A stretch of DNA of 64,000 nucleotides from an uncultured Nitrospiraceae bacterium (lineage in GTDB: Bacteria > Nitrospirota > Nitrospiria > Nitrospirales > Nitrospiraceae), in NCBI GenBank assembly GCA_963706325.1, contig CAVPLT010000001.1, positions 896,001-960,000 of the forward strand, in the 5' to 3' direction. The notes below the pieces were generated by a model, which had not been told where the DNA came from, searched no databases, and saw nothing but the letters and a program-made list of their open reading frames with translations. This document shows, piece by piece, positions 9,405 through 41,448 of this stretch. Every line of letters begins with the position of its first letter. Position 1 is the first letter of the stretch. Made by a program: the position numbers and the translations under genes.

Positions 9405-9420
9405 CGCAATACCCATGCCG
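9405..9420 (-). promoter_or_regulatory. sigma54 (-24/-12) promoter
   Basis: Minus strand CGGCAT-GGGTA-TTGCG (GG-N10-GC), ~50 bp upstream of the kinase start. Confidence 0.65.
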
Positions 9421-9545
9421 CAGTTTCGTACCTGAAGCGCTTGGAATGCAGAGAACAACCCATTGATTCTGTGTAGGGTGTGTGTACGTTGGCGCCCTTC
9501 AAGTGCCAGCGATTGGAGGTACTTTTGTCCAAATGAATGCGTGCA

Positions 9546-9561
9546 ATATCGGATCAGATAC
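9546..9561. promoter_or_regulatory. GTATC-N6-GATAC palindrome (putative enhancer site)
   Basis: ATATC-GGATCA-GATAC, 126 bp upstream of the sigma54 motif. Confidence 0.6.
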
Positions 9562-9599
9562 AGTCGGGAGCGGGCATGGGCTAGACTGCGGAAAGGAGT

Positions 9600-11900
9600 T
9601 TACAACTTCAGGGACGGCGCGGTTTCGATCGGTAGGGTGAAACAGAACTGAGTACCGACACCCAACTGGCTCTCGACCCAGATCTGCCCCCCATGGAGAC
9701 CGACGAGACTCTTGGTAATGAAGAGGCCGAGCTGGGCCCCTTGTGATGTCGGCATCGCCGATTCCACCTTAGAGAATTCGTTAAACACCTTGGTTATCTC
9801 GTGGGGCGCAATCCCGCACCCGGTATCGGATACTGCAATAAGCACGAACCCGTCGTCCCGGAGCTCACATTTCACGGAGACGTGTCCGGCCTTGGGAGTA
9901 AATTTTATGGCATTGCCGACAAGATTCCAAAGTATCTGTTCGAGTTTATCGCGATCGGCGCGAACCGTGAGGGCCTGGTCACAGGGGACGACCTCCAACT
10001 CCATAGACTTCTCGGCGGCGAGGGTTTGAAAACTTTCTACGACATCCGTCACGAATTCGGCGACGCGTAGCGGTTCGGGTTTGATGTCGATGCGCCCGAC
10101 ATCCAGCCTCGACCAGTCCAATAGCTGATTGATGATTCGGGTGAGACGATCCACATTGTGTTTGATTCTCTGCAGATAATGCCCTTGCCGGTCAGACAGT
10201 TCACCGGTCAGCCCGTCCAACATGTTCTCAACGAATCCCTTAATAGACGTCATCGGCGTGCGCAATTCATGGGAGGCGACCGACACGAACTTCGAACGCC
10301 GTCGATCGTGCTCCTGAAGACGCTCGTTCACCGTCTGTAGTTCATGGGTTCGGTCCTGCACGCGCCGTTCGAGATGTTCCGTCAAGGCGGCCAGTTCAGA
10401 ATAGGCCCGTGCATTGTCCACTGCCACAGCTACGTGGCTGGCAATCGTCGCCAGGAGCTCCAGGTCTTCCTGCGTACAAGGCAGGGTCCTGCGATCGGCG
10501 CCTAAGTATCCGAGTATCCTTTGCTGACTACGGAGCGGTACCCCGACGAAGGAGAAAATTCCCATGTGGCGAAGCAGCGGCAGCACCGTGGGCGAGATGC
10601 GGTCGGCGACCGTGTCCAAGTTCGCCACCAGCAGCGGTTTGCCGTGGGTCAACAGGTCGGCCGCAAGGCCTCCGTCATCGCGGACTGGAATCGTCAATTG
10701 TCGGACCGTCGCTTCGTCCTCGGGCAGCATGCCAAAGACCTGTCCCACCGTCGCAAGTCCGCGCTCGTTATCCCACAGAAACAGGATCATTCTCGCGAAT
10801 CCCAAATTTTTGCTGAGTAACTCCAAGACCGTAGCTAGGAGCCTGTCCAGGTCGAGTGTGGAAGTGAGTGCGGCGCTGGATTGATTCAATGTCGTCAATT
10901 GGGTGACATGTCTTCTGATCGTATCCACGTTGGTGGAGATGGCCTGATCGCGTTCCTGGAGTGATTTGGTCATGAGATTGAAGAGCGTGGTCAATTGGCC
11001 CACCTCGTCCTGCGTCGTCGGCACGACAAAGGTGGAGAGATCGCCCTCCCCGACTTTCCGTGCACCGGCGGCGAGATTGCGCAAGGGAGTAATGATACGG
11101 CGAGCCAGAAAGTTGGTGAGCACGATGCCGGTCGTGATGATGCCCAACGTGAGGAAAAGAAAATTACGAAGGATCTTCGACAATTCGCGCTGCATCGGCA
11201 TCTCGGTCAGGCCGATTTGGACCACGCCGAAGGCTTGCGGGGCCGGCTGAGAGACTCCGCCTTTCCGGGTCTCTTCGTCTTGAAGCGCCAAGGCGTCAAG
11301 ACGAGATTCTGTACGTTTCAGGACAGGAATCGCGAAATCATAAAAGGTTTCCTCTCGAATGCCGGCTGTCGAGAAGGAAAGCGCCGAGTCCTGCTCGGTG
11401 ATCGGAATGGTACCGGAGCCACTGAGTCGGAGGCGCGTGATGATTGGTTCCGTGGGCGGGCGCTTGACCACTAATTCCGCAATGTCAGGACGAGGGTAGA
11501 ACGGCTGCTCGGTCGAGCGAACAGTAACGAGCGGGTTGATGAGTTTGCCCTTGCTTTTTGCGGCGAGGACTTGGCCATCACCGCCGGTGATCATCGCATA
11601 GACCACCTCATCGACTCCCATGACTCCATCAATGAATTGCTCCAGAATGACGCGTTCTTCAATGATGATTCCATACCGCACGTTGTGGGCGAGGTTCTTC
11701 ACCAGCACGGCCCCCAAATCCCTCACACGCTCAGTCATGGCGAGCCGCTTGGTGTAAATGAAGTACCAGCTCATTCCTGAGCAGGTCAAAATAATGATCA
11801 GGCTAAAAAACACCACGAATTTCGTCCGGAGACTGATGAATCGTCCCAATCCGCTCGGGAGAAATGGCGGTTTGATGAGGTGAATGGCGGGGCTCTTCAC
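9600..11900 (-). CDS. membrane sensor histidine kinase (periplasmic sensor-HAMP-GAF-HisKA-HATPase)
   Basis: Two TM helices, HAMP (PLRNLAAGARKVGEGDL...DEVGQL), GAF, SHELRTP H-box, NAIKFT; GTG 11900 preceded by AAGGA. Confidence 0.92.
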   Translation of the reverse strand: MKSPAIHLIKPPFLPSGLGRFISLRTKFVVFFSLIIILTCSGMSWYFIYTKRLAMTERVRDLGAVLVKNLAHNVRYGIIIEERVILEQFIDGVMGVDEVVYAMITGGDGQVLAAKSKGKLINPLVTVRSTEQPFYPRPDIAELVVKRPPTEPIITRLRLSGSGTIPITEQDSALSFSTAGIREETFYDFAIPVLKRTESRLDALALQDEETRKGGVSQPAPQAFGVVQIGLTEMPMQRELSKILRNFLFLTLGIITTGIVLTNFLARRIITPLRNLAAGARKVGEGDLSTFVVPTTQDEVGQLTTLFNLMTKSLQERDQAISTNVDTIRRHVTQLTTLNQSSAALTSTLDLDRLLATVLELLSKNLGFARMILFLWDNERGLATVGQVFGMLPEDEATVRQLTIPVRDDGGLAADLLTHGKPLLVANLDTVADRISPTVLPLLRHMGIFSFVGVPLRSQQRILGYLGADRRTLPCTQEDLELLATIASHVAVAVDNARAYSELAALTEHLERRVQDRTHELQTVNERLQEHDRRRSKFVSVASHELRTPMTSIKGFVENMLDGLTGELSDRQGHYLQRIKHNVDRLTRIINQLLDWSRLDVGRIDIKPEPLRVAEFVTDVVESFQTLAAEKSMELEVVPCDQALTVRADRDKLEQILWNLVGNAIKFTPKAGHVSVKCELRDDGFVLIAVSDTGCGIAPHEITKVFNEFSKVESAMPTSQGAQLGLFITKSLVGLHGGQIWVESQLGVGTQFCFTLPIETAPSLKL

Positions 11901-11913
11901 GGAGGTCCTTTCA

Positions 11914-12918
11914 TCAATAAAGCTCGTCGGCCTTACTCTCGAGGTCCTTGGGAATCTCGATTTCAAGGAACTTGGCGGTCTTGAGGTTGAGGCTCATTTC
12001 TATGCGGTTTGGGTGCAAGGGCCGCATGGGCAGCGCGACCTGGCCGTCGATAATCTTGCGGGCGAGAGTGCCGGCTTGGCGTCCGATATCGCCGTAGTTG
12101 ACGGAGAGGCACAGAAAGGCGCCGCTTCTCGCAAATTCACGGGAGAATCCGATGACCGGTACACGTTCTTCCAGGGCCGTGTTCAAGATAAATCGTAGGG
12201 ACTCATCGGTCACGACCGTGGAGTCGGGGACGAGCCACAAAGCCTTCACTGAAGGCAGCAATGCGCGTAACGCGCTGGGGACATCCCGCTCGCTCGTGAC
12301 TTGAGTCGGAACGAGGTCGATACCGTTCGATTTGAGCACGCGCTTGGCCTCCTCGATAAGGAGGGCCGTCTTGGACGGATCATACAGCGTGCCGATATGT
12401 TTCACATTGGGGAGCACTGCCCGGATCGTCGCCAGTTGCCGTTCAATCGGTACCTCCAGGAGAATGCCGGTCATGTTCGGAGTGTTGAGCCCATACTTCG
12501 CCGGGTCCAGTACCATCGAATAGACCACTGGGATGTCGACGATCTCCAGTTGTGCGGCCTTCGCGGCCTTTAACCCGATTGCGAACACGAGGGCAGGATC
12601 GACTGCCCGGATCTTGCGTGCTAATTTCCGGCCCTTCTCCAAATCACCCTGCAAATCATACTCGGAAAGCACGATGCCGCCAGGCAGGGCGGCTTTGAAT
12701 CCGCTGAGCGCCTGGTTATAGGCGGCGATGTCGGATGATTTGAGAATGACAATGTCCGTTGCCGACACCACGGCAGGGCAGAAGAACAACCAGAGGACGA
12801 GCCAGTGGCGTAGTCGCCCAGTCGCACGGGCCATGGTCGCGTGATGGTGTGACCGCACGGGTGTCACGAGTGACGTCCTTGATGAATCCGCCTGTTTCAT
12901 GTGTAGGCGCTGAGTCAT
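11914..12918 (-). CDS. ABC-type substrate-binding-like periplasmic protein
   Basis: Signal-like segment, IGTLYDP, LWLVPDS, NLKTAKFLEIEIP C-terminus typical of the ABC_sub_bind family; start uncertain. Confidence 0.82.
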   Translation of the reverse strand: MTQRLHMKQADSSRTSLVTPVRSHHHATMARATGRLRHWLVLWLFFCPAVVSATDIVILKSSDIAAYNQALSGFKAALPGGIVLSEYDLQGDLEKGRKLARKIRAVDPALVFAIGLKAAKAAQLEIVDIPVVYSMVLDPAKYGLNTPNMTGILLEVPIERQLATIRAVLPNVKHIGTLYDPSKTALLIEEAKRVLKSNGIDLVPTQVTSERDVPSALRALLPSVKALWLVPDSTVVTDESLRFILNTALEERVPVIGFSREFARSGAFLCLSVNYGDIGRQAGTLARKIIDGQVALPMRPLHPNRIEMSLNLKTAKFLEIEIPKDLESKADELY

Positions 12919-12923
12919 ACCGG

Positions 12924-15900
12924 CTATCTCGGCCCTTTCGCCTCCTGCACGATGCCAAAGACGCGCATGGCCTGGCCCTTCTGGTCTCGATGGATTCGTC
13001 CGGTCCATGCCAACCAGTACATGGTCCCATTCGGCCTGACAACGCGATGTCGAATGTTGATGGAGGTCTGATCGGACAGACTGTGAGTGATACTTGCCAT
13101 GACCGTGGCTTGATCTTCGAGATACATGGCGTGGATCCATGCGGCGTAGTTCCCCAGGAAGGAACCGGCCGTCAGGCCGAACAGGGCCTCGACCTGTTCG
13201 GACCAATAGACCGCACCGGTGCGCACGTCCCAATCCCAAATGCCGACCTCGCACGCGGTAAGTGCCATCCGCAATCGCTCCTCGCTGACACGTAGTTGCG
13301 TCTCCGATCGTTTTCGCTCCGTGATGTCGGTAGAGATCCCACACATGGCCGAGACGTTTCCGGCCTGGTCGAAGATCGGGACTTTTATGGATAGGTAGGC
13401 ATGGGGGCCGTCGGCGTGCGGTGCGTACTCTTCGATTTCAAACGGTTTGCCGTGTGTGAGGACCCATTGGTCATTGGTTCGAAATGCATCGGCAAAGTCC
13501 TTCGAAAAAATATCGTGATCGGTCTTGCCGATAACCTGGTCGGAGCTGAGATGGAAGATCTGCTCGAATTGCTTGTTGACCATGAGGTATCGCCCGTCGC
13601 GTTGCTTCGCATAGATGGCCGTGGTGGAATTGTTGATGACGGACCGGAGCAGTTCCTCGCTGCGGTGAAGCGCGTTCTCAGCGCGTTTGCGCTCGGTGAT
13701 GCATTGCAGAGAGCCAGCCATGCGTAGGGCTTGGCCCTTTTCGTCGCGCTGCACCACTTCGGCACGAGCATGCACCCATCGATAGTCGCCCTGCTTGTCC
13801 AGCAGACGGTACTCGATGTCGTATGGAGGTCTGCCCGGTTCGAGGCAGGCGGAGAGACGCTGGACCACTCTTCTCCGATCGTCAGGATGCAGTCGAGATA
13901 TCCAGCTCTCTAGAATGTCGGGAAACTCCTGCTGGTTGTACCCCAACATGTCACGCACACGTGGTGACCACCAGACAGGTGTAGACGGTGAGTTCCATGG
14001 TCGTCCCGGCAGCACATGACTGTCCCAGAACCCGTCGGTCGACCCGCGGATGACCGATTCCAGTCGCTCCTCGCTGGCATGTAGGGATTCCTGGACTCGT
14101 TTGTAGTCGGTGATGTCGCGGGAGATGGCCAGCAGGCGGCGGACATGGCCCTTTGCATCGAGCATGGGCGTCACTTGCACGTCCCACCATTTCGCCTCTC
14201 CCGTGGTGGTCGGGCAAAATCCCACGAATTTCCCCATTTCACCGGCCCTTGCCGCTTCCAGGGCAGCGAGCGCGGCATTGCGATCATCGCCTTCCCAAAA
14301 ATCTCCCCAGGGCTTATTGATGTATGTGCTGATGTCCGTGATGCCGAGTAGTGTTTGCCCAGTGTCGTTCATGTACTGTAGCCGTCCATCCAAATCCAGC
14401 ACCTTCATGCAGTCGGCGCTGCTGCGCAGGATTTGATTGGTGAGCTCCTCGCTGTTGCGCAGCGCGAGTTCGGCTTCCTTCATGGCCGTAATGTCCTCGC
14501 ACACCATGAGGAGGACCGGGCCCTGGTGCTCATTCGGGACGCCCTGCGCGGTGATACGCGCCCAGATCACGCGGCCGTCCTTGTGGACTTTGCGCACCTC
14601 CCATCGCCCGGGTTGGCTCATGTCCGAGAGACAAGCCGCGAGATGTCGGCGTACGGCGTCGCCATCGTCCGGATGGAATACATCCATGACCTGCCTCCCG
14701 AGCAGTTCTTCTACTCGGTAGCCAAGCCGCTCAGCCCCGCAGCGGTTCACCGACAGCACCGCGCCTTCTGCGTCCACCATGAAGTACATGGAGGGATTGT
14801 CGTCGAACAGCACCCGGTATCGTTGTTCGCTCTCGATCAGCGCGGCCTCGACGCGCTTGCGATCGGTCACATCCTCGGCCAAGCCTACGATACGGTAGAC
14901 CGTTCCCGAGGCATCGCGAATCGGATACGCTCGGTCCCAGATCCATCGAATCGATCCGTCGGGACGTACAATCCGATACTCTTCGCGATACGTGCCCTGT
15001 CCCTGCCGGGCGACGGCGGTTGTGATGCGCTGCCGGTCCTCCGGATGAATCGCCTCCATCCAAGAATGAGGCGAGGCGTAGACGCTCTCGCAGGAGCGCC
15101 CCCAGGCGTCCTCGTATCCTGGGCTAATGTAGATCATTCGATCTTTGGTGTGATTGGTAATCCAGAACACTTCACTGATGTGTTCCGCCAGCTGACGAAA
15201 CCGCTCCTGGCTTTCCTCGACGGCTTGTTCTGCCTCCTTTCGTTCGGTGATATCGCGGAATACCACGACGGCTCCCGCAACGACACCCTTCTCGATAATC
15301 GGGGTGCAGACATACTCCACGGGCATGCTTGTGCCATCTTTCCGCCAAAAGACGTCGCTTGTAATACGATGGATCAAGCCGTCTCGCAGGGACGTATAGA
15401 TCGGGCACTCCTCGGCCGGATAGGGGCTTCCGTCAGGCCGAGAGTGATGGAGGAGTGCGTGCATCGGTCGTTCGACCAGTTCGGAAGGCTCGTAGCCGAG
15501 CGACCAAGCCGCCGTCGGATTGACGAAAGTCGTCAGGCCGGCGCCATCCAGGCCATAGATTCCCTCGCCTGCTTGCGTAAGAATCACTTCGTGCAAATGG
15601 CGGAGGCGGTCGAGAATTTCTTCAGCTAGGCGGCGTTGAGTGATGTCACGAATGATGCCGCTGTAGAAGACGGCGTCGGCCGTTTTCCATGTGGCCAGCG
15701 ACAGTTCCAGCGGAAATTCGCTCCCGTCCTTTCGTAATCCTTCCAGCTCAACCAAGCGACCGATTAGCCGGGATTGGCCTGCTTCACCGAGGCGGGTCAG
15801 GCCGCGGCCATGGGCCGCGCGGTAGCGCAGGGGCATCAACATGGTGAGGGGATGCCCGACCACTTCTTCATCGGCATATCCGAAAAGCTTCGACGCAGCT

Positions 15901-16412
15901 CGATTCCAGGAGAGAATGTTGCCGTGGTGATCGGCCAGCACAATGGAGTCGGTCGCCGCTTCGACCAGCGACTGAAATCGCGCTTCGCTCTCGCTCAGCG
16001 CATGTTCAGCATGCTCGGCTTTAGCGGCCAAAGCCTGAACGCCCACCGCCCGTTGCAGGATTGCACGCAATTCATCTCGATTGTAGGGTTTCGTAAGATA
16101 AGCGAACGCGCCTTGTGTCAGCGATCCGACTGTACGATCGGTGCTCGTGTAGGCGGTGAGGATGATCACCGGCAGCTGTGGTTGAAGTTCGTGCAAGGTC
16201 CTGAGCACCGAAGATCCGTCTCCATCCGGTAGTCCCAAATCCAGGAGCACGGCGTTATAGTGGTGCTCATGTGCCTGTGAAATTGCCTCGGCGCAGGTGC
16301 CTGCCACGCTGACCTCATAACCGTCGTGATCGAGAAAATCCTGCAGGGCAAGGACGATATCCGGATCGTCATCCACAACGAGAATGGAGTGAGCCAATGT
16401 TGTCGGTGACAT
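12924..16412 (-). CDS. REC + eight PAS/PAC domain protein without output domain
   Basis: N-terminal REC, then 8 PAS-PAC repeats separated by DITxRK linkers; ends without HisKA/GGDEF; GGAGG RBS before ATG 16412. Confidence 0.88.
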   Translation of the reverse strand: MSPTTLAHSILVVDDDPDIVLALQDFLDHDGYEVSVAGTCAEAISQAHEHHYNAVLLDLGLPDGDGSSVLRTLHELQPQLPVIILTAYTSTDRTVGSLTQGAFAYLTKPYNRDELRAILQRAVGVQALAAKAEHAEHALSESEARFQSLVEAATDSIVLADHHGNILSWNRAASKLFGYADEEVVGHPLTMLMPLRYRAAHGRGLTRLGEAGQSRLIGRLVELEGLRKDGSEFPLELSLATWKTADAVFYSGIIRDITQRRLAEEILDRLRHLHEVILTQAGEGIYGLDGAGLTTFVNPTAAWSLGYEPSELVERPMHALLHHSRPDGSPYPAEECPIYTSLRDGLIHRITSDVFWRKDGTSMPVEYVCTPIIEKGVVAGAVVVFRDITERKEAEQAVEESQERFRQLAEHISEVFWITNHTKDRMIYISPGYEDAWGRSCESVYASPHSWMEAIHPEDRQRITTAVARQGQGTYREEYRIVRPDGSIRWIWDRAYPIRDASGTVYRIVGLAEDVTDRKRVEAALIESEQRYRVLFDDNPSMYFMVDAEGAVLSVNRCGAERLGYRVEELLGRQVMDVFHPDDGDAVRRHLAACLSDMSQPGRWEVRKVHKDGRVIWARITAQGVPNEHQGPVLLMVCEDITAMKEAELALRNSEELTNQILRSSADCMKVLDLDGRLQYMNDTGQTLLGITDISTYINKPWGDFWEGDDRNAALAALEAARAGEMGKFVGFCPTTTGEAKWWDVQVTPMLDAKGHVRRLLAISRDITDYKRVQESLHASEERLESVIRGSTDGFWDSHVLPGRPWNSPSTPVWWSPRVRDMLGYNQQEFPDILESWISRLHPDDRRRVVQRLSACLEPGRPPYDIEYRLLDKQGDYRWVHARAEVVQRDEKGQALRMAGSLQCITERKRAENALHRSEELLRSVINNSTTAIYAKQRDGRYLMVNKQFEQIFHLSSDQVIGKTDHDIFSKDFADAFRTNDQWVLTHGKPFEIEEYAPHADGPHAYLSIKVPIFDQAGNVSAMCGISTDITERKRSETQLRVSEERLRMALTACEVGIWDWDVRTGAVYWSEQVEALFGLTAGSFLGNYAAWIHAMYLEDQATVMASITHSLSDQTSINIRHRVVRPNGTMYWLAWTGRIHRDQKGQAMRVFGIVQEAKGPR

Positions 16413-16444
16413 GCCATCCTCCCGAGTCCCGGAGGGCTCGTACG

Positions 16445-18460
16445 CTAAAATCTTAGGGTCAACCATCCCATCACCCTGCTGCCGATCGTCTCGCCGAGGG
16501 GGTATTCCTGATGTTTGTCGTTGAGTGCGTTATATGCGGACACGGCCACTTCCGCCTTCTCGTGCCAAAACCGATAACCTGCGCGTAGGTTCAAGAGGTT
16601 GTAGGCCCCGACGTTTGGGTTCGGCAGCGTCACAAGGGAGAGGGGGGCTGAGAAAATGTAGTGAATGATTGCCCCGGTGGATAGCTCGCCGATCCATAAT
16701 AATGAAAGATCGCTTCGGCGTTGAGCCCATTGTCCCATTCGCCCCGCATCCCGATGTTGAATTTGTTGTGAGGGGCGGCCCGTTGGATGCGACCGGTGAA
16801 CGTTTGGTGGATGTCCTGGTACGAGTAGTTCACGAAATCCGGTCAGCCACTTAGTGGCGAGAATTTCAACCCCGACTTCTCCGCCATAGATATCCGCAGA
16901 GTGGTTATCGTTGGTATAGGTTGCCACCGTCGGAGACTGATCGCGTACGCTGATGAGGTCTGAGATATGATTGTAAAAGGCGTCGGCACGAACCAGGATC
17001 CGGTGGCGCCAGTACCATCCTTGGTATCCCAACTCGTAGGAGATGATCTGCTCTGGTGAAAGGCTCTGGCCTCCCACTATTGATGTCGATAGTGGGGGCA
17101 CCGGCGGGTTCGTGTTCACCTGCGCATTCGCCTTCTTTTCGAGAAGCGTTGGAGGTCGATAGGCCACTGAACCGGACACCCGAAAGGTATGATTCGGAGC
17201 TGGTGTATACAGGAGCGCTACGCGAGGACTAACGGTCGAATTAATAAAGGTGTCCATGTCATAACGAAATCCAGCCTGCAAGCTAAGTGGCTGAGCGAGC
17301 TTCCACTCATCCTGGAGAAAGAATCCCAGTCTATTCTCTGTACTGTATTGCGAGATGTCACTGCTCGACAGAGTATTGAGACGGTAGTTCAGACCATAGG
17401 TCACCCGATTGCTAGGTAGCATTTCAAGAGAATGTTGGACGTCAATATTATAGGTATTAGCCAAGAACGATGAGGTCGGCGACCCGTCCCCAGCATTGTA
17501 ACTGAGAAACGGTGCAAGGGGAGGCTGGAACCTCACAATCGATGTGGCGTTGTATTGATTCCAGAACGCTCGCACAAAGAAGTCACGTCGTTCATAGGCA
17601 ACACTGGCGTATCCCTGTACCGGTTTCTGAGAAGTCGTGACATCCTGACTCACACCGAAATTGAACGCATTGGAATCAACGAGTCCGCCTGAGACCTTGA
17701 TCTTTGACTCTGCCGACAGAGCATATTCGGTCAAGACATTGAACAGATTATCCCGAAAGGCCAAGGAACTGCTGTTACTCCAGGAGGCGTTCTGATTGTG
17801 ACCGATGGAAAGACGATAGCCAAACTTGTCCACCGTTCCGGCCTGGATCGCGGAGGCCATGATGGTCCCATAGCTTCCGCCTCCGAATTGCAAAGTGGTC
17901 CCCTTCATATCTTCTGGAGACTTCGTGATGATGTTGATGACTCCATCAAACGCGTTAAATCCCCACACCGCTGCCGCCGGTCCCTTCAACACTTCAATCC
18001 GCTTAATCTCCGGCAGTGTTACCGGCAATGCTTTCCAGTTCACCGTTCCCTGTACGTCGTTATAAATTGATCGTCCATCCACCATGACCAACAGTTTGTT
18101 GGCTCCCGTTTGATTGTCTCCGCGCACACTCACGTTGAAATCTGCGCCATTCATTTGCATGACTTCCATCCCGGGGATGCGCCGGAGCAGGGTTGGTATG
18201 TCGATGGCACCCGAATGCCGGATGTCTTCGTCTGTAATCACATAAACATTCGATGGCGCCTGAGAGATCGGTTGCTCATAGCGACTGGCGATGCTGACCG
18301 TTTCCTCTTCCTTCAGTAGTTCGAGTTCTTGACTCGCCTCAACGGGCACCGGCTCGGGCCTCTCAGGTGCAGCAGATTCTGCCCATGCACTGCCGGTTAA
18401 GCCGACCATCAGTGCCGCCGCGAGCACTGGATGACCTGATCGCTGGAGCTCAGCCTGCAT
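16445..18460 (-). CDS. TonB-dependent receptor (two compensating indels near the 3' end)
   Basis: Plug motifs (PSNVYVIT, LLVMVDGRS, IKRIEVLKGP, GVINIITK), beta-barrel, C-terminal Phe; barrel-like text continues in another frame at 16630-16833. Confidence 0.88.
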   Translation of the reverse strand: MQAELQRSGHPVLAAALMVGLTGSAWAESAAPERPEPVPVEASQELELLKEEETVSIASRYEQPISQAPSNVYVITDEDIRHSGAIDIPTLLRRIPGMEVMQMNGADFNVSVRGDNQTGANKLLVMVDGRSIYNDVQGTVNWKALPVTLPEIKRIEVLKGPAAAVWGFNAFDGVINIITKSPEDMKGTTLQFGGGSYGTIMASAIQAGTVDKFGYRLSIGHNQNASWSNSSSLAFRDNLFNVLTEYALSAESKIKVSGGLVDSNAFNFGVSQDVTTSQKPVQGYASVAYERRDFFVRAFWNQYNATSIVRFQPPLAPFLSYNAGDGSPTSSFLANTYNIDVQHSLEMLPSNRVTYGLNYRLNTLSSSDISQYSTENRLGFFLQDEWKLAQPLSLQAGFRYDMDTFINSTVSPRVALLYTPAPNHTFRVSGSVAYRPPTLLEKKANAQVNTNPPVPPLSTSIVGGQSLSPEQIISYELGYQGWYWRHRILVRADAFYNHISDLISVRDQSPTVATYTNDNHSADIYGGEVGVEILATKWLTGFRELLVPGHPPNVHRSHPTGRPSQQIQHRDAGRMGQWAQRRSDLSLLWIGELSTGAIIHYIFSAPLSLVTLPNPNVGAYNLLNLRAGYRFWHEKAEVAVSAYNALNDKHQEYPLGETIGSRVMGWLTLRF

Positions 18461-18472
18461 CACATCACTCAC

Positions 18473-18920
18473 CCAGAACCGTAGCGTGAGCCATCCCAGT
18501 ACCCGCCTGCCGATGATGTCGCCCAGTGGAGGCTCCCAAGGGATCTGATTGGCAAATCGTTGATGCCGCCTCGCGCGCTGACGTTAAAATCGGCGCCGGA
18601 CACCTGCATGATATCCAGACCGGGCACGGGCCGGAGCACGGTGGGAATGTCGGTTGCGCCGGAATGCCGAATATCCTCATCCGTGATGACATAGACGTTG
18701 GAGGGTGACTGGGAAATAGGTTGCTCGTAGCGGGTCGCGATGCTCACGGTTTCTTCTTTGAGAAGTTCGAGCGCGTCGTTCGCACGCCCCTTCTCTGTCG
18801 GGACGGAAAGAGCAGGCGAGTCCTCAGCCTGGGTCGCAATGGCGCTACACAAGGTTAAGATCCCTCCCCAGATGAGGAGGCAGGCAGTGACGAACGGTTG
18901 GTGGTTGGGTGATCATCCAT
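18473..18920 (-). pseudogene. internally deleted paralog of the adjacent TonB-dependent receptor
   Basis: N-terminal plug (ELLKEETVSIATRYEQPISQSPSNVYVITDEDIRHSGA) joined, in another frame, to a C-terminal strand EPPLGDIIGRRVLGWLTLRF matching the neighbour's EYPLGETIGSRVMGWLTLRF. Confidence 0.8.
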
Positions 18921-18995: not shown

Positions 18996-19011
18996 GGCAT
19001 ATCGGGTGCCC
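18996..19011 (-). promoter_or_regulatory. sigma54 (-24/-12) promoter
   Basis: Minus strand GGGCAC-CCGAT-ATGCC upstream of the TonB receptor operon. Confidence 0.55.
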
Positions 19012-19198
19012 CTTACCGACCGTTTCCGAATAGTCTGACGCGCGTCGAGGAACGAGACTTCAGTTTCAAGAAGATCTCTCGCAAGAGGCGTGCTTATGGA
19101 GTGGGTAAGGAGAGCGAAGGAATAGGCCGTACTATGAGGGAATGTAAGCGATTTTCTACGTCTTCTCGTAGGAAAAGCACAAAGGTCCAGGGCTGGCC

Positions 19199-19492
19199 CT
19201 AGGCGCGTATCTGACTGGATACAGACTGTATATCTTCAGATACAGGTGCCTCGTGAATTTTGCTGGTGCGAGGCCTGCCTGGTTTTAGGTCTTGAAGCCG
19301 GGGCGAAAAGGGCTGGCCATTCTGCGACTCAAGATTATGGAGAAAATCTTGGAGCGCCGATGAGATGAGGCCTGCCATGGTGGTGCCGGAGGTCCAGTAG
19401 GCGGCATCGCGCATACGCTCAAGGAGATCGGTCGGCAGACTCACAGTCATTCGCTGGCGTCTCGGGCTTCTTAAGTAAACAAATCGGTTCAT
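19199..19492 (-). CDS. putative ribbon-helix-helix DNA-binding protein
   Basis: RMTVSLPTDLLERMRDAA...TMAGLISSAL pattern resembles CopG/MetJ RHH; AAAGGAG RBS. Confidence 0.65.
   Translation of the reverse strand: MNRFVYLRSPRRQRMTVSLPTDLLERMRDAAYWTSGTTMAGLISSALQDFLHNLESQNGQPFSPRLQDLKPGRPRTSKIHEAPVSEDIQSVSSQIRA
19207..19243. promoter_or_regulatory. tandem GTATC-N6-GATAC palindromes, 21-bp period
   Basis: GTATC-TGACTG-GATAC (19207-19222) and GTATA-TCTTCA-GATAC (19228-19243). Confidence 0.6.
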
Positions 19493-19932: not shown

Positions 19933-19969
19933 GTATCGAATCGGATGCTAGGTGTATCTGATCCGATGC
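19933..19969. promoter_or_regulatory. tandem GTATC-N6-GATAC-like palindromes, 21-bp period
   Basis: GTATC-GAATCG-GATGC (19933-19948) and GTATC-TGATCC-GATGC (19954-19969). Confidence 0.7.
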
Positions 19970-33135: not shown

Positions 33136-33175
33136 AAGATTTTTTCCTTCCGACCGACCATTTTCATGGTCGTTC

Positions 33176-36115
33176 TTAGGACCCGCAACCGGTCTCCTGG
33201 CCTGAGACGCCTCGATGTGACAATGAGCGATATGGATCAGGCACATGTCCCACGTGCCGCTGAATGCGCTGCGAGAGCTCGAAGGCGCCGTTGGGGCGTA
33301 CCTGAGCGTGGGAACCCGGCTTTTCATGGGCAAGTAAGGCCAGCGGACTCATCAGCCACCCGCCCGGTTCGACAGGGAGCGCATCCCGTCCCGCGACCAC
33401 GAGGCTGCTCAGTTGACCATTCGCCTGGGCGGCACAACGCTGGGTGAGGAGCGGCTGTGCTTGCAAGGGACGTTGCGGCAGGGTGGCCAACGTGTTGCTC
33501 AAACTCGACACGGGCGATTGTATGTTGACGGCGCCGCTCAACCCGAACTGCGAGGAGGCGCTGACGACGCTCGTCGGATCCGCCAGGAACGTCCCCGCAA
33601 TGATGCTGATATTGCCCCCCGTGCCTTGCACGGCTTGCGCAAGCACCTGGCTGTTCTGCAACGTGACGACGGCCGGGTCGAGGGTAATGTTGCCGCTGGA
33701 CGTGTTTGGACCACCCTGGACGGAAGTGCTGAGTTGGCTGTTCACAAGCCGGATCGAATCGGTGGCCTGGATGAAAATATTGCCTCCGCTCGCCAGTGTT
33801 GCGTCGGTCGTAACAGAGGCGTCTTGACTGAGAAACTGAGCACCTGCCTTGATGGTGATGTTTCCGGCGTTGCCGAGGCCGGTGCTCCCCGCGGAAATCA
33901 TCGCTCCATTGCCCAATGAGACGGCCTGCCTGGCAGCGAGAGAAATGTTGCCTCCAGGGCCTTCCGCAGATGTGTTGCTCGTAATCTTGGTGGACTGATC
34001 CGCTCGTAAATTGGTTGCATTGATCGTAATGTTTCCAGCCGGCGCTGATCCCAGCGTGTCAGTCCTAATGGCGCTATTGGTCAGCTGGATCGCATCGGCA
34101 GTCATCGTGATCGTGGCGGGAACTATGGTGGCTGGGCCATCTTTCACTATCGTATGGAGCTGGACATTGTTCAACGTCACCAGCTGAGCCGCATCGGAGG
34201 GTTCTGAGCCGATGCCTGAGATGGTCAATGTCCCAGCCTGGCCAACCTCGCTTGAGCTAATGATGAGGGACGGAGGTTGGCCATTGATCGGTGTCCCGTC
34301 AGGTTTCACGTTTCCCCTCAAAATGTTGACGTTGAGGGCGATTGTCCCCGCTGGCGCAGCGGCGTTACCGAAGGCGCCGGAAAAAATCCCCGTTCGGCCG
34401 CTGAAACTCAGGGTGTCGGCGGTGATGACGGTTGCGCTTGATGCTGGCAGAGTCGCGGCTCCCCCATCCAGCCCGGAGCTGAATGAAGCATTATAGAGGG
34501 CAACCAGCCTTGCAGGGTCCGTGGCCTCAGGTCGGATTCCTGAAATCGTCAGGATTCCGGCCGGGCCGGCCGTGGTCCCCACGTCGTTGCCTGTGACAAT
34601 GAACATCCTGTGCGCGCCAACGATCGGCGTCTCATCGGGATAGACGTTCACAAGCAGCCGGTCGGTGTTGATGGCAATCGTGCCTGCAGGTCCGGGGCCG
34701 TTGGTGTTCGCTACAAGTGTGGCGGCGCCCACCCCTCGTTCATCGGGCCATACTTCATTGTGTAACAACACCGAGTCCGCGGTAATCGTGATGGCAGAAA
34801 GCCTCGTATCTGCCGTCCCGCCAAAAATCCTGGTGCTCAGCGAGGTGTCCCTGAGCGTAACGCTCTTCGCAGCGGTGCCGGATCCGCCCAGACCTTGGAC
34901 GATGATCCTCCCCGCAGGGCCCGCATCGGCGTCCCGGCTCCTGCTGTCGCTCGCAATCAGGTTGCCGTTCAACGTCCCGTCGTCAGTGGGGGGGTTGAGC
35001 AGGACGATATTGGCGCCGGCTTTCGTGGTCAGCGTATCGACATTGAAGGTGATAACACCTGCCGGCGCTGAGCCATGTGTATCCGCGGTGATGAGAACCC
35101 CATTGGTGAGCGACACGTTCTCTGCCGTGATGGAAATGGTTGGAGGAGCATTAGGCATATCGGCCACACTGTTCGAGCCGTTCACAGAAACGGCTTTCAG
35201 GGAGGCATCGTCCATGGCCAGCTGACCGGCACGAATCACGATCCGCCCAGCCATGTCGGCGCTCGTATCGATGGTTGCTCCTTGCGAAAGGGAGATGGTT
35301 CCAAACCTGCTGAACCCGCTTACCGAGGGTTCCGTATGTTCGAGCTGCGCATTGTTGAGCAGTACCTCGCCGGTCGACGTGACACTCACGAGGTTGATTT
35401 GCCCGCCTGGGGCTGAAAGCCGGGTTGGCTGCACCGTGGCATTTTCGAGCGTCCCGCTCTGAAGAGTGAGATTCCCTCCTACCAGCGAAATGCCCTGTCC
35501 TTCCGAAACCGCCAACTGACTGCCCTGCACTGTAATTGCCCCCGGATTCGAGCCGAGGAATCCAAATGCCGCCACCGGCGCGCTGGAGATGGAAGCGTCC
35601 TGTGAGCCGGGAATCGCGTTGAACCGCGCGCCATCCGCCAAGCGAAGATAATCAGCCGTGGTGAAGCTCACCGACCCGCCGACATTCAAAGACGCATTCG
35701 GGCCGAAGACAATCCCGGCCGGATTCATCAGGAGCAGATTGGCGCTCCCGAAGCCGGTGGTTTGGATGGTCCCGAAGATGTTCGATGAATTCCCGCCGGT
35801 GACGCGGCCGAGAATATTAGATGTTGTGAGACCGGAGTCGTTCAAAAAGTTGGCGACGTGATTCGTGGGGACGCCGAACTCACCAAAGCTGTGAAAAAGA
35901 TTGGGTCCGCTGCCAGGACGAGTGCCCCCGGTGATGGCATGCACGTTGCCGCTTGTCGTGACGGTCGTACCCAGCCCTGACGAGGTGATGGGAGATGTCG
36001 CTTGCGCGTGAGTCAGATCGGGCCGGCATAAAGGGATCAGACAACAGATTACCAAAGCGGTAGTTCGCAGTGAGTGGCGCTGATGCCTTGGGCCGGTCTG
36101 GAGCTTGCGCGTCAT
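33176..36115 (-). CDS. TpsA exoprotein 3
   Basis: TPS domain, different passenger, same C-terminal module, ends ETGCGS. Confidence 0.9.
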   Translation of the reverse strand: MTRKLQTGPRHQRHSLRTTALVICCLIPLCRPDLTHAQATSPITSSGLGTTVTTSGNVHAITGGTRPGSGPNLFHSFGEFGVPTNHVANFLNDSGLTTSNILGRVTGGNSSNIFGTIQTTGFGSANLLLMNPAGIVFGPNASLNVGGSVSFTTADYLRLADGARFNAIPGSQDASISSAPVAAFGFLGSNPGAITVQGSQLAVSEGQGISLVGGNLTLQSGTLENATVQPTRLSAPGGQINLVSVTSTGEVLLNNAQLEHTEPSVSGFSRFGTISLSQGATIDTSADMAGRIVIRAGQLAMDDASLKAVSVNGSNSVADMPNAPPTISITAENVSLTNGVLITADTHGSAPAGVITFNVDTLTTKAGANIVLLNPPTDDGTLNGNLIASDSRSRDADAGPAGRIIVQGLGGSGTAAKSVTLRDTSLSTRIFGGTADTRLSAITITADSVLLHNEVWPDERGVGAATLVANTNGPGPAGTIAINTDRLLVNVYPDETPIVGAHRMFIVTGNDVGTTAGPAGILTISGIRPEATDPARLVALYNASFSSGLDGGAATLPASSATVITADTLSFSGRTGIFSGAFGNAAAPAGTIALNVNILRGNVKPDGTPINGQPPSLIISSSEVGQAGTLTISGIGSEPSDAAQLVTLNNVQLHTIVKDGPATIVPATITMTADAIQLTNSAIRTDTLGSAPAGNITINATNLRADQSTKITSNTSAEGPGGNISLAARQAVSLGNGAMISAGSTGLGNAGNITIKAGAQFLSQDASVTTDATLASGGNIFIQATDSIRLVNSQLSTSVQGGPNTSSGNITLDPAVVTLQNSQVLAQAVQGTGGNISIIAGTFLADPTSVVSASSQFGLSGAVNIQSPVSSLSNTLATLPQRPLQAQPLLTQRCAAQANGQLSSLVVAGRDALPVEPGGWLMSPLALLAHEKPGSHAQVRPNGAFELSQRIQRHVGHVPDPYRSLSHRGVSGQETGCGS

Positions 36116-36154
36116 ATCACCTTATGTCGACCGGCCACTTTTTGTGGCCGCTTC

Positions 36155-39078
36155 TTAAGACCCACAGCCGGTTGCCCGGTCAGAAATACCTCGCTGGGGT
36201 GAAGAGCTCATTTGTCGTAACGACGCTTCTCCCGGAAGTTGGCTCTGCGCCGGTCTGACACGAGGGAAGCCGGCGACAGGCTGGGCACCCGGTTCAAGCC
36301 GTTCGGGGGTCAGCAGAGCCATCGGACTCATCAGCCACCCGCCTGGTTCGGCAGGCAGGGCATCCCGTCCCGTTACCACGAGGCTGCTCAATTGACCATT
36401 CATCTGGGCGGCGCATCGCTGAGTGAGCAGGTTCTGTGCTTGTAGCGGGCGTTGCGGCAGCGTGGCCAGCGTGTTGCTTAAGCTCGACACGGGCGATTGA
36501 ATGTTGACGGCGCCGCTCAACCCGAACTGCGACGAGGCACTCACGATGCTGGTCTGGTCGGCAAGAAAGGTCCCCGCGATGATATTGATGTTGCCGCCTG
36601 CGCCCTGCACCGCTTGGGCCGTGACCTGGCTGTTTTGGAGTGTGACGATGGCCGGATCGAGGACGATGTTGCCGCCCGCCGTGTTGGGACCGCCCTGAAC
36701 GGATGTGCTGAGCTGGCTATTCACCAGTCTGATGGAATCCGTCGCTTGAACTGTAATGTTCCCGCCGCTGGCTTGGTTTGCAGTAGTAGACAAAGTTCCA
36801 TTCTGACTCAAAAACTGAGCCCCTGCGTTAATGACAATATTGCCGGCATTGGCAGGACCGGTGCTGTTCGCGATGATCGAACCTCCGTTACTCAAGGTGA
36901 CGGACTGATTCGCTACGACTGAAATATTCCCGCCCGTTGCGCTGGGTTCGATCCCCGACGTTGATGCCGAAAGGACGCCGCCATTCTGAATGGTGACGGA
37001 TTGGGCTGATAGATTAATGCTGCCCCCGGCCCCGGTGCCTTGTGCGTCCGTGAAGATTCCGCTCCCGACTCCATCGATAACAATCGATTGCGCTGGACCG
37101 GGGACATTTGGACCGTAATCGTGCCGCCTCCACCGGTTGGAATTTCTACGAGCGCATCCGGAGCATCAAATGGGAACGGGGTGCTGCCGCTTTTGAGTTG
37201 CCCACCATTGGTGACTTGTAGACTATTCGTGAAGAGATTGAGCCTCCCTCCCTGTCCGGATTCGGAAGGTCTCGGTGGTGAGGAGACTTCCGCTCTGTCA
37301 CGAGAATCTGAGGAGCCGTGATCGTGAGGTCGGCGGCTGGAGCTGATCGGTAAGCATTAGTTGCAATTACAGAGTTGGCCATCCAGGCTCAATTGTTCGG
37401 AGAGCGTCACGGTGATGTTACCTGGTACATGCGGAGTCAAGTTGTCACCCTCGATTAGGGACCTTTCCTGAAGGGTCAGGTTTTGCGCGAGTGATCTCCA
37501 CCTTTCCCAACGACCGGTTATGTCGTTGCCGCGTTGAAGACAGTCGCTCCTTGGCTCAAACGATATCGCCATTGTGGTGCGTTTAAGGTGATGTTACCCG
37601 ACCTGCCGGTACTCAGGCTGGTTTGAGACGTAATGATAGGACTTGCCAGCATGTGAGTCCCTCGGGTGCTCGTGAGTTCGATATGACCTGCATTGCCCGA
37701 ATTGAGGCGATTCCTTCATCCACTCCTTGGCGTAACGGTCGAGATACCTCCAAAGTTCTCCGATTCAATGTTCCGAACCGCTCGTGCAGTGATGTTGCCG
37801 CTGTCACTCGCGCTCACGGTAGCGGTCGTGAGCTGCGCAAGCGTCTTTCATGAGGATGGAGTTGGCGTCCAACGTAATGTCCCCACTCTTCCCCCCCGCA
37901 CTCATCGGCGCCACATCGGACCTGATGCCGGTGAAGGGGAAAGTAAATGTCTCCAGATCGAACTCATTAATCCCAACCATCTCGATGTGATCGGCTCGTA
38001 TGCGCACGCCACCCGAGCCGAGGCCCGGTGATGCCTGGTCGGTCACATTGGTTTCAAGGACGGCGAGGTTCCGAATCACCACATCCTGGGCCATCTGAAT
38101 GTCGATCCCAGTCCCAGCTTGGCCCGGCTGTCCCGAGGGTGGGCCGGTCACGTTGGCCGAGAGCGTCGAGTCGTCAATAACAAAACTGCCGCCCCGAATA
38201 CGAATGGTCCCACCGTCGTAGCCGCTGCTGTCGATGACCGATTTTTGCGAAACCTGGATTGTGCCGAGCGCTCCAAAGGACTGTCCGTTTATATTGGGAG
38301 CTTGCTCCAAGGTGCCCGTGAGAATCTCTCCCGGCGAGGCAACGCTCGCCAGAGAAATCGCGCCGGCTGGCGCGACGAGCTGTGCTGGTCGGACGGTGCC
38401 GTCAGCAAGTGTGCCGGACTCAACGGTGATATTCCCACCGACGAGCGAGATGTTCTGGCCAGGGAGCACGGAGAGTTCTCCGCCCTGAACGGTAATGGCC
38501 CCGGGGTTCGATCCGAGGAATCCGAATGCTGCGACCGGTGCGCTGGAGATAGACGCGTCTGCCGATCCGGGAATCGCCGTGAACCTTGCACCATCTGCTA
38601 GACGTAGGTGATCAGCCGTTGTGAAACTGACTGATCCTCCGACATTGAGTGAGGCATTCGGGCCGAAAACAATCCCGGCTGGATTCATCAAAAAGAGATT
38701 GGCGCTGCCGAAGCCGGTGGTTTGAAGAGTGCCGAAGATGTTGGACGGATTGCCATCCGTGACCCGACCTAAAATATTGGAGGTAGCCAGGCCCGAGTCG
38801 TTGAGGAAATTGGCGGTGTTATTGGTCGGAACACCGAATTGTCCAAAACTGTGGAATAGGTTGGCTCCGTTTCCTGGCCTTGTACCGCCCGTAATATTAT
38901 AGGTGTTCCCCGCTTGGGACACGGTGGTGCCCAGGTTGCCGGCACCGGTAGTTGAAGTGATGGGAGGAGCTGTTTGTGCGAGACCGAGTGAGGCCTGCGA
39001 GGCTGCTATCAGAAGCACGAAAACTGGCATCGCACCTGACAGGGAGATGAATGACGCTCGGCCAGTAGTCCCTATCAT
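36155..39078 (-). pseudogene. TpsA exoprotein 4, multiply frameshifted (~37050-37850)
   Basis: Intact TPS N-terminus (37804-39078) and C-terminal module ending ATGCGS (36155-36895); beta-helix fragments (SGNITARA, VPGNITVT, AGGSINLS) continue in shifting frames between them. Confidence 0.82.
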
Positions 39079-39207
39079 GGAGGGTTCCTTTTGCCTAGGG
39101 TTACGATTCAGCTCTACTGAACAGTCGATGATCATGGGCTGGCGCCTGTTGGCCAGCCCATGATTTTTCTACTCATCCCCTTGCCAGCGACGCAAGGCTA
39201 CAGCCAA

Positions 39208-39600
39208 TTAGACGCTTTTGTCCATAGACCCGAGGCACCAGGACTTGATTCTAAACTCTGGCCCTGCGATGAGACGCGATGCGAGACTACCAATCGAGCG
39301 ATTCCCTCTCACATGTGCGACGATTTCCTTGGGCAGGTTGGTTGAAGGCAGAGTAAGGGATAGTGAATCATGACCCGTATTGAAAGCCGATGCGGGGGTG
39401 ATGGCAGCCGCATGGAGCTGAAAGAGATCAGTGCCACTCGCACGGCATGTGGCACATCCAGGTGTGCCACGCCACTGACAATTCCCTTGCGGATTCCAGC
39501 AGGGGCAGCAAAGGGCGTTAGCCTCAGTCGGGATGAAGAGTGATGGACCTGTGAGCAGCGTAAAGAGCATGAGTATAGGTGCGAGTCTGAGCATGAACAT
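39208..39600 (-). CDS. secreted Cys-rich hypothetical protein
   Basis: Signal peptide ending ANA followed by LCCPCWNPQGNCQWRGTPGCATC; GAAGGAGG RBS. Confidence 0.7.
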   Translation of the reverse strand: MFMLRLAPILMLFTLLTGPSLFIPTEANALCCPCWNPQGNCQWRGTPGCATCRASGTDLFQLHAAAITPASAFNTGHDSLSLTLPSTNLPKEIVAHVRGNRSIGSLASRLIAGPEFRIKSWCLGSMDKSV

Positions 39601-39651
39601 CGCGAGACCTCCTTCAGAAGAAGTCAGTTGAATGAGTGGTCAGTTGCCTTC

Positions 39652-40065
39652 CTACTTATGCTTGGGATCCACCTTTTTACCCCTCTCGTACAGAGCATTC
39701 GGGCACCTTGTGAACTCATAGGTGTCCCCTTCTGTTACAACTGTGCCCGGCATTACGGAGATCGTGTACACCTTGCTCCTTAGTTTTTTAACGTATTTTT
39801 TCTCAGTTTCGTCATTCATGTCTGGTTGAGTGACTGCGAAGACGGAGTCGGGATAGGTCACGTTTAAAGAACCTTTCTTGTCGTCCTTTTTTACGGTGAA
39901 TTCGGAAAAACAACCATCCGCACCCTCGCCACAGGCCTCACCTACTCGCGGGCAATTCATTTGATCTTTAGCGTTGGTAGCCGCGAATACAGGGGTAGCC
40001 TCGTTTACAGTTAGAGAAACCAGCGCAGCACAAACTGCTACATATCTACATTTGTTCATGATCAC
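39652..40065 (-). CDS. secreted hypothetical protein
   Basis: Signal peptide ending VFA, four Cys in the mature part, Lys-rich; GGGAGGAG RBS. Confidence 0.7.
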   Translation of the reverse strand: MIMNKCRYVAVCAALVSLTVNEATPVFAATNAKDQMNCPRVGEACGEGADGCFSEFTVKKDDKKGSLNVTYPDSVFAVTQPDMNDETEKKYVKKLRSKVYTISVMPGTVVTEGDTYEFTRCPNALYERGKKVDPKHK

Positions 40066-40549: not shown

Positions 40550-40726
40550 CTAGGCGACCGAGTCCTTGCCCGCGGGCATGTGGCGTAGAGAAACGGGATC
40601 GCCGGGGCTATTTGCTGCATTTGAATCGACCACGGGCAAATTTAGGGGGGACGCATCGATCCAGATACGGCCGGCCGCTATGAGAAGGAAGAGGATCCCG
40701 AGAAGCAGGAAGAGGAGCGCGAACAT
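40550..40726 (-). CDS. 58-aa single-pass membrane protein
   Basis: MFALLFLLLGILFLLIAAGRIW...; CAGGAGG RBS. Confidence 0.6.
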   Translation of the reverse strand: MFALLFLLLGILFLLIAAGRIWIDASPLNLPVVDSNAANSPGDPVSLRHMPAGKDSVA

Positions 40727-40822: not shown

Positions 40823-40943
40823 TACGAATCTAGGTGGCTCATGCATTCTACGGTGGTAAAGATCTGTAGAGATTTTAAGGACATCTGGGTTTCGCCCCCA
40901 CTCCATTCAGACAGATACGAATGCACGTAGTGTTTTCGTTGGT

Positions 40944-40980
40944 GTATCTGATTCGATTCATGGCGTATCCGATCTGATAC
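40944..40980. promoter_or_regulatory. tandem GTATC-N6-GATAC palindromes, 21-bp period
   Basis: GTATC-TGATTC-GATTC (40944-40959) and GTATC-CGATCT-GATAC (40965-40980). Confidence 0.7.
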
Positions 40981-41071
40981 TCATACACTTCCCCATAGGA
41001 CCGGGGACAACGAAGATGGCTAGGGTCTAAATGCAGAACCAGCAGTCAAAGGAAGTTCTGTGCGAATAAGG

Positions 41072-41104
41072 TGCTGCGTCTCCGTGATGGGCGGAGACGC
41101 AGCA
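41072..41104 (-). terminator. 13-bp perfect hairpin, possible terminator
   Basis: TGCTGCGTCTCCG-tgatggg-CGGAGACGCAGCA; only a weak U-tract follows. Confidence 0.5.
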
Positions 41105-41285
41105 GATGGCGTGGGCAGAAGGCGGTCAGATCAGCGCTGGATGGGCACAATCCAGGAGGCCGTGACATGCGGCCGGTTCAAAAATCTTAACCGGCGACAG
41201 GAAACCGGCTCTGCTCCACACCGAGGTATCATGGCTGGATCATTAGGCCAGTTGAACGCAGGGCCTGATGCACGACATACAGAGA

Positions 41286-41301
41286 AGCAACCGCTATGCC
41301 G
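41286..41301 (-). promoter_or_regulatory. sigma54 (-24/-12) promoter
   Basis: Minus strand CGGCAT-AGCGG-TTGCT. Confidence 0.65.
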
Positions 41302-41432
41302 CTCACGCGTCCCACGTTCGCTGATGAATTCCACATCTGGCTGCACCGCAAGACTGCTCCGGCCCGGACGCAAAATATAACCGGATAGAATTACGGTTGG
41401 GCGAAATATTGCGTTGCAAGCAGGAGAGCGAG

Positions 41433-41448
41433 GTATCCTTTTCGATAC
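41433..41448. promoter_or_regulatory. GTATC-N6-GATAC palindrome
   Basis: GTATC-CTTTTC-GATAC, 132 bp upstream of the sigma54 motif. Confidence 0.6.

Follow-up and report, generated by a model that had tools for sequence, protein, structure and literature searches.

Does the palindrome GTATC-N6-GATAC, which recurs upstream of candidate sigma54 promoters in an uncultured Nitrospiraceae bacterium, mark a regulon, and which protein would bind it? The locus that raises this question lies between positions 9405 and 41448 of the window, the whole 64,000-nucleotide stretch of DNA that was analysed (G000:C1:896001-960000, where G000 is the genome under study). Bacterial enhancer-binding proteins (bEBPs) bind DNA as dimers, form hexamers and open promoters in an ATP-driven reaction that involves DNA looping. 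An earlier note on this DNA proposed that one such activator controls five -24/-12 promoters through eight palindromes, and all eight palindromes and the five GG-N10-GC strings that it listed are indeed present. Here we find that motif excess, placement and conservation support a sigma54 regulon whose activator would act from palindromic upstream sites. With about 20 predicted promoters genome-wide, and a family-wide distribution, the predicted regulon is larger than the earlier note claimed. The refined element GTATC-N2-AT-N2-GATAC is very probably the upstream activating sequence of one Nitrospiraceae sigma54 bEBP that would switch on some 20 units, a single activator presumably serving all sites.

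At one mismatch or fewer, the window contains 11 matches to the palindrome against 0.94 expected, a number reached in none of 100 shuffles. Scored with a matrix trained solely on the 20 exact sites lying outside the window, the eight palindromes noted earlier reach 15.6-22.0 bits, and three further matches absent from that list (6681, 37732 and 40653) reach 9.5-13.1 bits. The proposed tandem arrangement, 21 bp apart, is borne out for the pairs 19207/19228 (19207..19243), 19933/19954 (19933..19969) and 40944/40965 (40944..40980). The remaining two palindromes are a site with one mismatch and 19.0 bits (9546..9561) and an exact site (41433..41448). Measured edge to edge, the gaps between palindromes and promoters are about 2 bp below the distances previously given (126, 196, 118, 122 and 132 bp).

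The palindromic sites are given without strand, and all other features of the window described here lie on the minus strand. Of the five -24/-12 sites, four are conserved in relatives, with scores of 8.1-18.3 bits: P9405 (9405..9421, GCGGCATGGGTATTGCG), scored and aligned in relatives; P19800 (19800..19816, ATGGCACGGCTGTTGCT), which reaches 18.3 bits; P40807 (40807..40823, AGGGCACAACCTTTGCG); and the predicted promoter of a candidate small RNA (sRNA; 41286..41302, GCGGCATAGCGGTTGCT). The fifth, at 18996..19012, had been assigned to the 19207/19228 pair and is probably no promoter. It scores 4.8 bits, can be located in 18 of 30 orthologous loci and retains GG-N10-GC in 13 of the 30. Nearer to the pair stands an atypical -24/-12-like element, TAAGCACGCCTCTTGCG (19080..19096), in which AG replaces GG in all 30 loci. 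This element, AAGCAY-N5-TTGCG, lies 102-114 bp from the tandem sites in every one of them, and across its AAGCAY-N5-TTGC portion a single locus has T for the first C. Because the AG element is present in 30/30 loci and GG at 18996 in 13/30, we disfavour 18996 and prefer the element at 19080, which is likely to be the promoter belonging to the 19207/19228 pair and to the TonB unit described below.

Across the genome, exact GTATC-Nk-GATAC sequences number 23 at k = 6 and 0-7 at every other k from 0 to 20. Eighteen of the 23 are intergenic and five are coding according to our own gene caller. A sigma54 score of at least 8 bits was found within 50-220 bp of 18/23 exact sites versus 10.8% of 6000 random intergenic positions, and around 54 strong intergenic -24/-12 sites the motif occurred upstream of nine and downstream of none; the palindrome is therefore linked to -24/-12 elements, as had been supposed, and does not occur at background frequency. 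Eight of ten control half-sites showed no such pairing, the exceptions being TGATC (3/14) and inverted GATAC (5/11). Promoter-site pairs above threshold number 22, including two doubtful ones inside genes, and their edge-to-edge gaps are 72-154 bp. The spacing of 19 tandem pairs was 21 bp in nine cases, 22 bp in four, 23 bp in two and 20 bp in one, which places 15/19 at 21-23 bp. The refined consensus of 32 sites is GTATC-N2-(A/T)(T/A)-N2-GATAC, with free flanks and a preference for central AT. The genome encodes one copy of rpoN with an intact RpoN box and 25 bEBPs, and AAA+ activators with a GAFTGA-type loop are present.

The same pairing recurs in relatives. Over 201 genomes of the phylum, exact sites number 20-28 in the six genomes of the bacterium's genus, 1-17 in other members of the family and 7-10 in genus g9; they number 0-4 in 11 g8 genomes and are mostly near control elsewhere in the phylum. 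A composite pattern (site, 65-165 bp, GGYR-N7-TGC) was present in 33 of 60 selected genomes, and reversed controls gave almost no matches; 363 exact sites in 36 Nitrospiraceae genomes gave 163 composite matches compared with 22 for a mis-ordered, composition-matched control (TGC-N7-YRCC). Motif-promoter pairing was observed in nine genera. In five-genome alignments the sites and -24/-12 elements form conserved islands amid divergent DNA, sequence-conservation footprints occur at the orthologues of all five window promoters, and the palindromes stand out as the principal blocks of upstream conservation. The site at 9546, the 40944/40965 tandem and P40807 are each kept in 5/5 aligned genomes. 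Conservation in orthologous promoters is also evident for P19800 (30/30 loci), for its upstream sites (at least one in 27/30 and two in 25/30) and for the 19207/19228 tandem (30/30).

The promoter at 41286 precedes a candidate sRNA of about 215 nt (41060..41274, both ends predicted), which the earlier note had placed there and which is supported by a stable fold, covariation and homologues. The region has a folding z of -4.1, with a 13-bp hairpin at its end; it includes a conserved hairpin, GGAU-YGUGCCC-AUCC (41139-41153), and a GC-rich terminator-like hairpin (41073-41103). In 26 aligned copies, compensatory changes affect 15/20 pairs of the core hairpin and terminator, a value not equalled in 500 shuffles, and helix pairing is 87% versus 37-42% in slid controls; the core hairpin was picked by eye, and RNAalifold on the 26-sequence alignment gave the terminator alone. 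Open-frame lengths across the core vary widely among 17 homologues. A covariance model matched 33 of 65 genomes, all Nitrospiraceae, 25 of the 33 being training genomes. Among the 30 best loci a -24/-12 element is present at 26, accompanied at 16 by a site of at least 13 bits; among six held-out loci the corresponding numbers are three and two. Site, promoter and sRNA core occupy the same syntenic place, downstream of a CopD-like gene, in 13/26 family genomes. The sRNA may be the most conserved output of the regulon. Neither the candidate nor six homologous loci matched Rfam, and a search with the 22-nt core gave no convincing mRNA target. The leader of the adjacent peptide gene was rejected as a pairing partner, as it ranked 35 of 4010 start regions and its register of pairing varies between relatives. 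A regex-only scan of the genome did not find an Hfq motif; CsrA and an IHF/HU protein were found. A partial copy of the sRNA core was also observed at C7:442392, downstream of a transaldolase-like gene; the -24/-12 element there is weak, and neither an upstream site nor a match to the sRNA profile accompanies it.

None of the 25 bEBP genes lies in the window, and the activator would thus be encoded outside it, as first proposed. A tree of 163 bEBPs from eight genomes (FastTree, without bootstrap) pointed first to a CHASE2-bEBP and then to a GlrR-like protein, both of which fail on presence/absence. The CHASE2-bEBP (G000:C5:27099-29822) is a 907-aa protein with a CHASE2-transmembrane-coiled-coil-AAA-HTH architecture, encoded behind a TPR gene and present in about half of the Nitrospirales genomes searched. 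It had looked attractive in view of the CHAT/DUF928 targets, and it fitted the first eight-genome tree; its C-terminus was not found in G087, G120, G135 and G189, each with 4-8 composite sites, nor in G099, G150 and G080. Early profiling was weakened when G171 and G099, first taken as regulon-negative, proved to hold small regulons. The genome G156 (2.0 Mb, 80 contigs) keeps the circuit, and five full bEBPs plus a CHASE2-bEBP fragment were found in it. The five are orthologues of C1:73841, C1:68902, NtrX, C7:654144 and C5:319154; motif-negative g8 genomes contain three of these as well.

The best single guess, a tentative one, is the bEBP C1:68902-70305, a protein without a Pfam match in its N-terminal sensor region. 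Its orthologue occurs in 50/52 family genomes, in g9 (G159 and G198) and in 0/11 g8 genomes, the best presence/absence fit. A more doubtful second guess is the response-regulator bEBP C5:319154, which is missing among the 18 bEBPs of G198, though that genome has convincing promoter-site pairs. The FleQ-like and NtrX-like proteins, C1:73841, C7:654144 and C7:552142 are disfavoured. The recognition helices of the first two resemble those of Desulfovibrio proteins having other sites, and orthologues of NtrX, C1:73841, C7:654144 and C7:552142 occur in motif-negative g8 genomes. In C7:654144-655541, GAISSA replaces the GAFTGA that seven orthologues keep, and this bEBP is possibly inactive here. The promoter adjoining C1:73841 has CTGT-N11-ACAG in 13/23 loci; in G000 the element lies at C1:70891, ahead of the sigma54 promoter that precedes a lone receiver gene. 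A conserved TGTCYA-N6-TRGACA palindrome with a partial second copy was seen at G000:C1:68765, upstream of the sigma54 promoter from which a large multicopper-oxidase-domain gene would be transcribed. Only in G198 is a site-promoter pair divergent from an FHA-bEBP. Between a bEBP gene and nxrA (G000:C7:686506) there is a variant site of 16.3 bits, with no -24/-12 element found nearby; nxrA-like genes are present in the genome.

Several observations count against the reading of the palindrome as the site of one bEBP. No bEBP gene fits the presence/absence profile cleanly, and no convincing conserved site with a promoter was found beside any bEBP gene. C1:68902 itself is also present in two genomes in which no regulon was found, G059 and G186, and the multicopper-oxidase promoter beside it carries a different palindrome. 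There are strong sites with no recognisable promoter (C1:417610, C4:591898 and C6:205792, for example), and 10 of the 26 promoter-bearing sRNA loci have no site of at least 13 bits. The sigma54 matrix was assembled by hand from a consensus; after it had been retrained on the regulon's own promoters, a site of at least 14 bits accompanied 17 of 99 predicted promoters, with the next-best promoter at 9.7, and this training set makes the count partly circular. Counts across kin do not rest on independent samples, and the transcription, binding and function of the regulon are deduced from sequence. A further point on this side is the identity of the site with that of a regulator of another family.

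That regulator, RhpR, belongs to the OmpR family and is not known to be a bEBP. The alternative that survives best, improbable as it appears, holds that the palindrome is bound by a non-bEBP, such as an RhpR-like two-component response regulator, acting on sigma54 promoters as a co-activator or repressor, and that a distinct bEBP functions with no site of its own. The earlier note did not recognise the operator as a described one, which is incorrect: GTATC-N6-GATAC is the footprinted Pseudomonas syringae RhpR site, in a different context, and the two consensus sequences are identical (PMC4191427, PMC6426608). Seven OmpR-type DNA-binding domains in the genome, together with the imperfect fit of every bEBP, are consistent with this alternative. 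The 70-150 bp distance, the one-sided placement and the helical-phase tandems are, however, typical of bEBP sites, and the palindromes form the chief conserved blocks of the footprints. Moreover, the promoter of RhpR itself is an RhpR target, whereas near the OmpR-type genes no site reaches 15 bits and matches of 13-14 bits fall only inside genes; the best NCBIfam matches of the OmpR-type proteins are of the MtrA/PhoB, CusR, YycF and KdpE types. The shared consensus is probably a convergence.

Less probable still is that the activator is the GlrR/QseF-like regulator C4:936528, acting in a Nitrospira counterpart of the GlrR-GlmY circuit. The best NCBIfam match of this protein is GlrR (495 bits, under the 763 cut-off), and the GlrR site TGTC-N10-GACA has equal half-site spacing and lies upstream of a sigma54 sRNA (PMC3045617). 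A GlrR-like gene is present in 31/35 family genomes and 3/3 g9 genomes and in 0/11 g8 genomes, its absence from G068 coinciding with a contig end. In G000, the region C4:934268-937940 encodes a kinase, a putative lipoprotein and the GlrR-like regulator in a qseEGF-like arrangement. In G099 and G156, however, the operon is absent between contiguous flanks (the clpB locus), yet site, promoter and sRNA are kept, and because of this the GlrR-like candidate is largely refuted, barring an unassembled gene. Outside Nitrospiria, moreover, GlrR-like presence does not track motif density (0.93 versus 0.80 per Mb, p = 0.20). It is very improbable that the sites arose by chance or represent a repeat or methylation motif unconnected with sigma54 transcription: GG-N10-GC alone is common, one of the five noted promoters resembles a chance match and 5/23 exact sites are coding, but the spacer-specific excess, asymmetric placement, conservation amid divergent DNA and recurrence in nine genera contradict it.

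With the palindrome taken as a bEBP site, the regulon's targets can be described. P9405 is followed first by a REC-PAS-GAF histidine kinase gene (6629..9358; Pfam, start by gene caller). Between P9405 and its site, a conserved block contains an IHF-like box (9456..9471) that matches 9/9 positions of the consensus WATCAA-N4-TTR as quoted in PMC3045617 and may act as a DNA-bending site. Such boxes are a minority feature, occurring at 4/22 regulon promoters against a 5% null. Genes for a TonB plug fragment, a TonB receptor, a multi-PAS response regulator, an ABC substrate-binding protein and a HAMP-GAF kinase (9600..18852; Pfam, synteny) probably form an operon behind the 19080 element, and the TonB receptor/PAS kinase cluster as a whole spans 6629-18852. 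The first TonB gene (18469-18852) is a 127-aa plug fragment here and a full receptor in G054 and G126. P19800 would not control this operon directly; two open reading frames (ORFs) come first. The first encodes a 41-aa predicted single-pass membrane peptide with a strong Shine-Dalgarno sequence (19598..19723); it is found in 27/30 loci, and third codon positions take 46/72 base changes, a coding-type pattern. The second is a conserved 97-aa ORF with no Pfam match (19199..19492), whose codon changes are 127 synonymous versus 41 non-synonymous and whose 3' end is overlapped by the 19207/19228 tandem; that it encodes a ribbon-helix-helix protein is a possible lead.

P40807, separated from its tandem sites by a conserved box seen in the five-genome alignment (GATGTCCTTAAAATC, 40871..40885), is followed first by an ORF for a 58-aa predicted membrane peptide (40550..40726), which would be 68 aa from an upstream ATG at 40756 and is kept in 4/5 aligned genomes. 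Genes for small secreted proteins, TPS-domain proteins, a ShlB/POTRA transporter, a TPR-CHAT protein and two DUF928 proteins (20023..40065) would form the downstream part of this unit. Pfam places the TPS/ShlB/CHAT/DUF928 cluster at 20023-39135, and in G054 the next long ORF past the P40807 counterpart is a TPS-family gene. The ShlB transporter (24145-25907) is split into two ORFs here and is a single ORF in relatives; decay or assembly error could account for this and for the TonB plug fragment. The CopD-like gene, the unit of site, promoter and sRNA, and a 2OG-Fe(II) gene lie side by side in G156, so the kinase/TonB/TPS block of about 41 kb (window 6175-47680) seems to have been inserted at the sRNA locus in a particular lineage.

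Tiny membrane peptides are a recurrent predicted first product. An ORF of 24-68 aa with a Shine-Dalgarno sequence and a hydrophobic stretch begins no more than 130 nt past 8/23 regulon promoters versus 4/82 other predicted sigma54 promoters (two duplicate rows removed; Fisher p = 5e-4), and small-peptide ORFs also follow 13/61 promoter-site pairs in relatives. These peptides are a class rather than a demonstrated family, because a hidden Markov model of the 41-aa peptide found no significant paralogue. Two paralogous ORFs of 52-67 aa (C1:143365 and C4:464950) were each observed past a regulon promoter and a short hydrophobic ORF. Further first or near targets are a tyrosinase, a haem peroxidase/kelch pair, a patatin, a PilZ protein and two receiver/PAS kinase pairs, and many regulon targets have no Pfam match. 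At G000:C7:344424 an exact site lies 48 bp from a -25 variant element with CG for GG, ahead of peroxidase/kelch genes.

In the proposed mechanism, a bEBP encoded elsewhere in the genome would bind single sites or tandem sites 21-23 bp apart and, about 70-150 bp away, contact sigma54-RNA polymerase at a -24/-12 element by looping, aided at a minority of promoters by IHF-like boxes; some 20 predicted transcription units would then be activated. In lineages with large regulons, the site may have been recruited to promoters of tiny membrane peptides and to those of TPS/CHAT, TonB receptor, tyrosinase, peroxidase/kelch, patatin and PAS kinase genes, and the combined outputs would constitute a surface-remodelling programme. 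The targets lean towards envelope, secretion and signalling genes. Because of this leaning, and since N. moscoviensis cultures shift to biofilm growth (PMC6606698), a link to a biofilm switch may be guessed at. A fuller and distinctly speculative version pictures an undescribed master sigma54 circuit of nitrite oxidisers, in which the ancestral output might be the structured sRNA, with its invariant YGUGCCC loop and no recognisable Hfq; the expanded outputs might be membrane peptides of 24-68 aa, feeding back on the sensor, and secretion and surface genes. This circuit would act as a surface/biofilm switch, and the AG promoter would set a separate threshold for the TonB/kinase genes.

The conserved sigma54 regulon, real as judged from sequence and apparently unreported, is of a well-known mechanism class. 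In the largely open-access literature, no report was found of GTATC-N6-GATAC as a bEBP site or in Nitrospira, and in the literature searched no mapped sigma54-activator binding site or sRNA family in Nitrospira; the main text of PMC12316311 contains none of the strings Nitrospir, GTATC or GATAC. The analysis yields a defined operator together with about 20 predicted promoters, a candidate sRNA distributed across the family and tiny peptides that look unannotated. The identical RhpR element is footprinted and ChIP-mapped in P. syringae (PMC4191427, PMC6426608). RhpR is an autoregulating two-component response regulator, whereas no Nitrospira site was found at a regulator's own promoter; unlike those of RhpR, the Nitrospira sites lie 70-150 bp upstream of -24/-12 elements, are often in tandem and prefer central AT. 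The closest circuit is GlrR (QseF)-GlmY/GlmZ of the Enterobacteriaceae, which combines a sigma54 sRNA promoter, palindromes more than 100 bp upstream, IHF boxes and the same half-site spacing (PMC3045617). Compared with TGTC-N10-GACA, however, the Nitrospira site has A at position 3 in 32/32 validated sites and a free outer base, and the Nitrospira sRNA matches neither GlmY/GlmZ nor any Rfam family. The bEBPs DVU2394 and DVU3381 of Desulfovibrio have palindromes with TGTATC/GATACA-like half-sites upstream of sigma54 promoters, but these motifs are 17 bp long, with a spacing one base shorter and less conserved half-sites, and Desulfovibrio regulons mostly comprise 1-4 operons, with a maximum of 12, versus about 20 promoters here (PMC4641369). 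The PEP-CTERM regulator PrsR controls a dispersed sigma54 regulon of exterior proteins, likewise found by pairing a motif with -24/-12 elements; its 17-nt motif differs, ending in TTTACA about 63 nt from the promoter (PMC1569441). MgrB-type feedback peptides are tiny membrane peptides within a signalling regulon (PMC2789325), a likeness by analogy only. To these systems the present regulon would add a candidate sRNA family, a predicted enrichment of tiny membrane peptides and a putative atypical promoter with an invariant AG.

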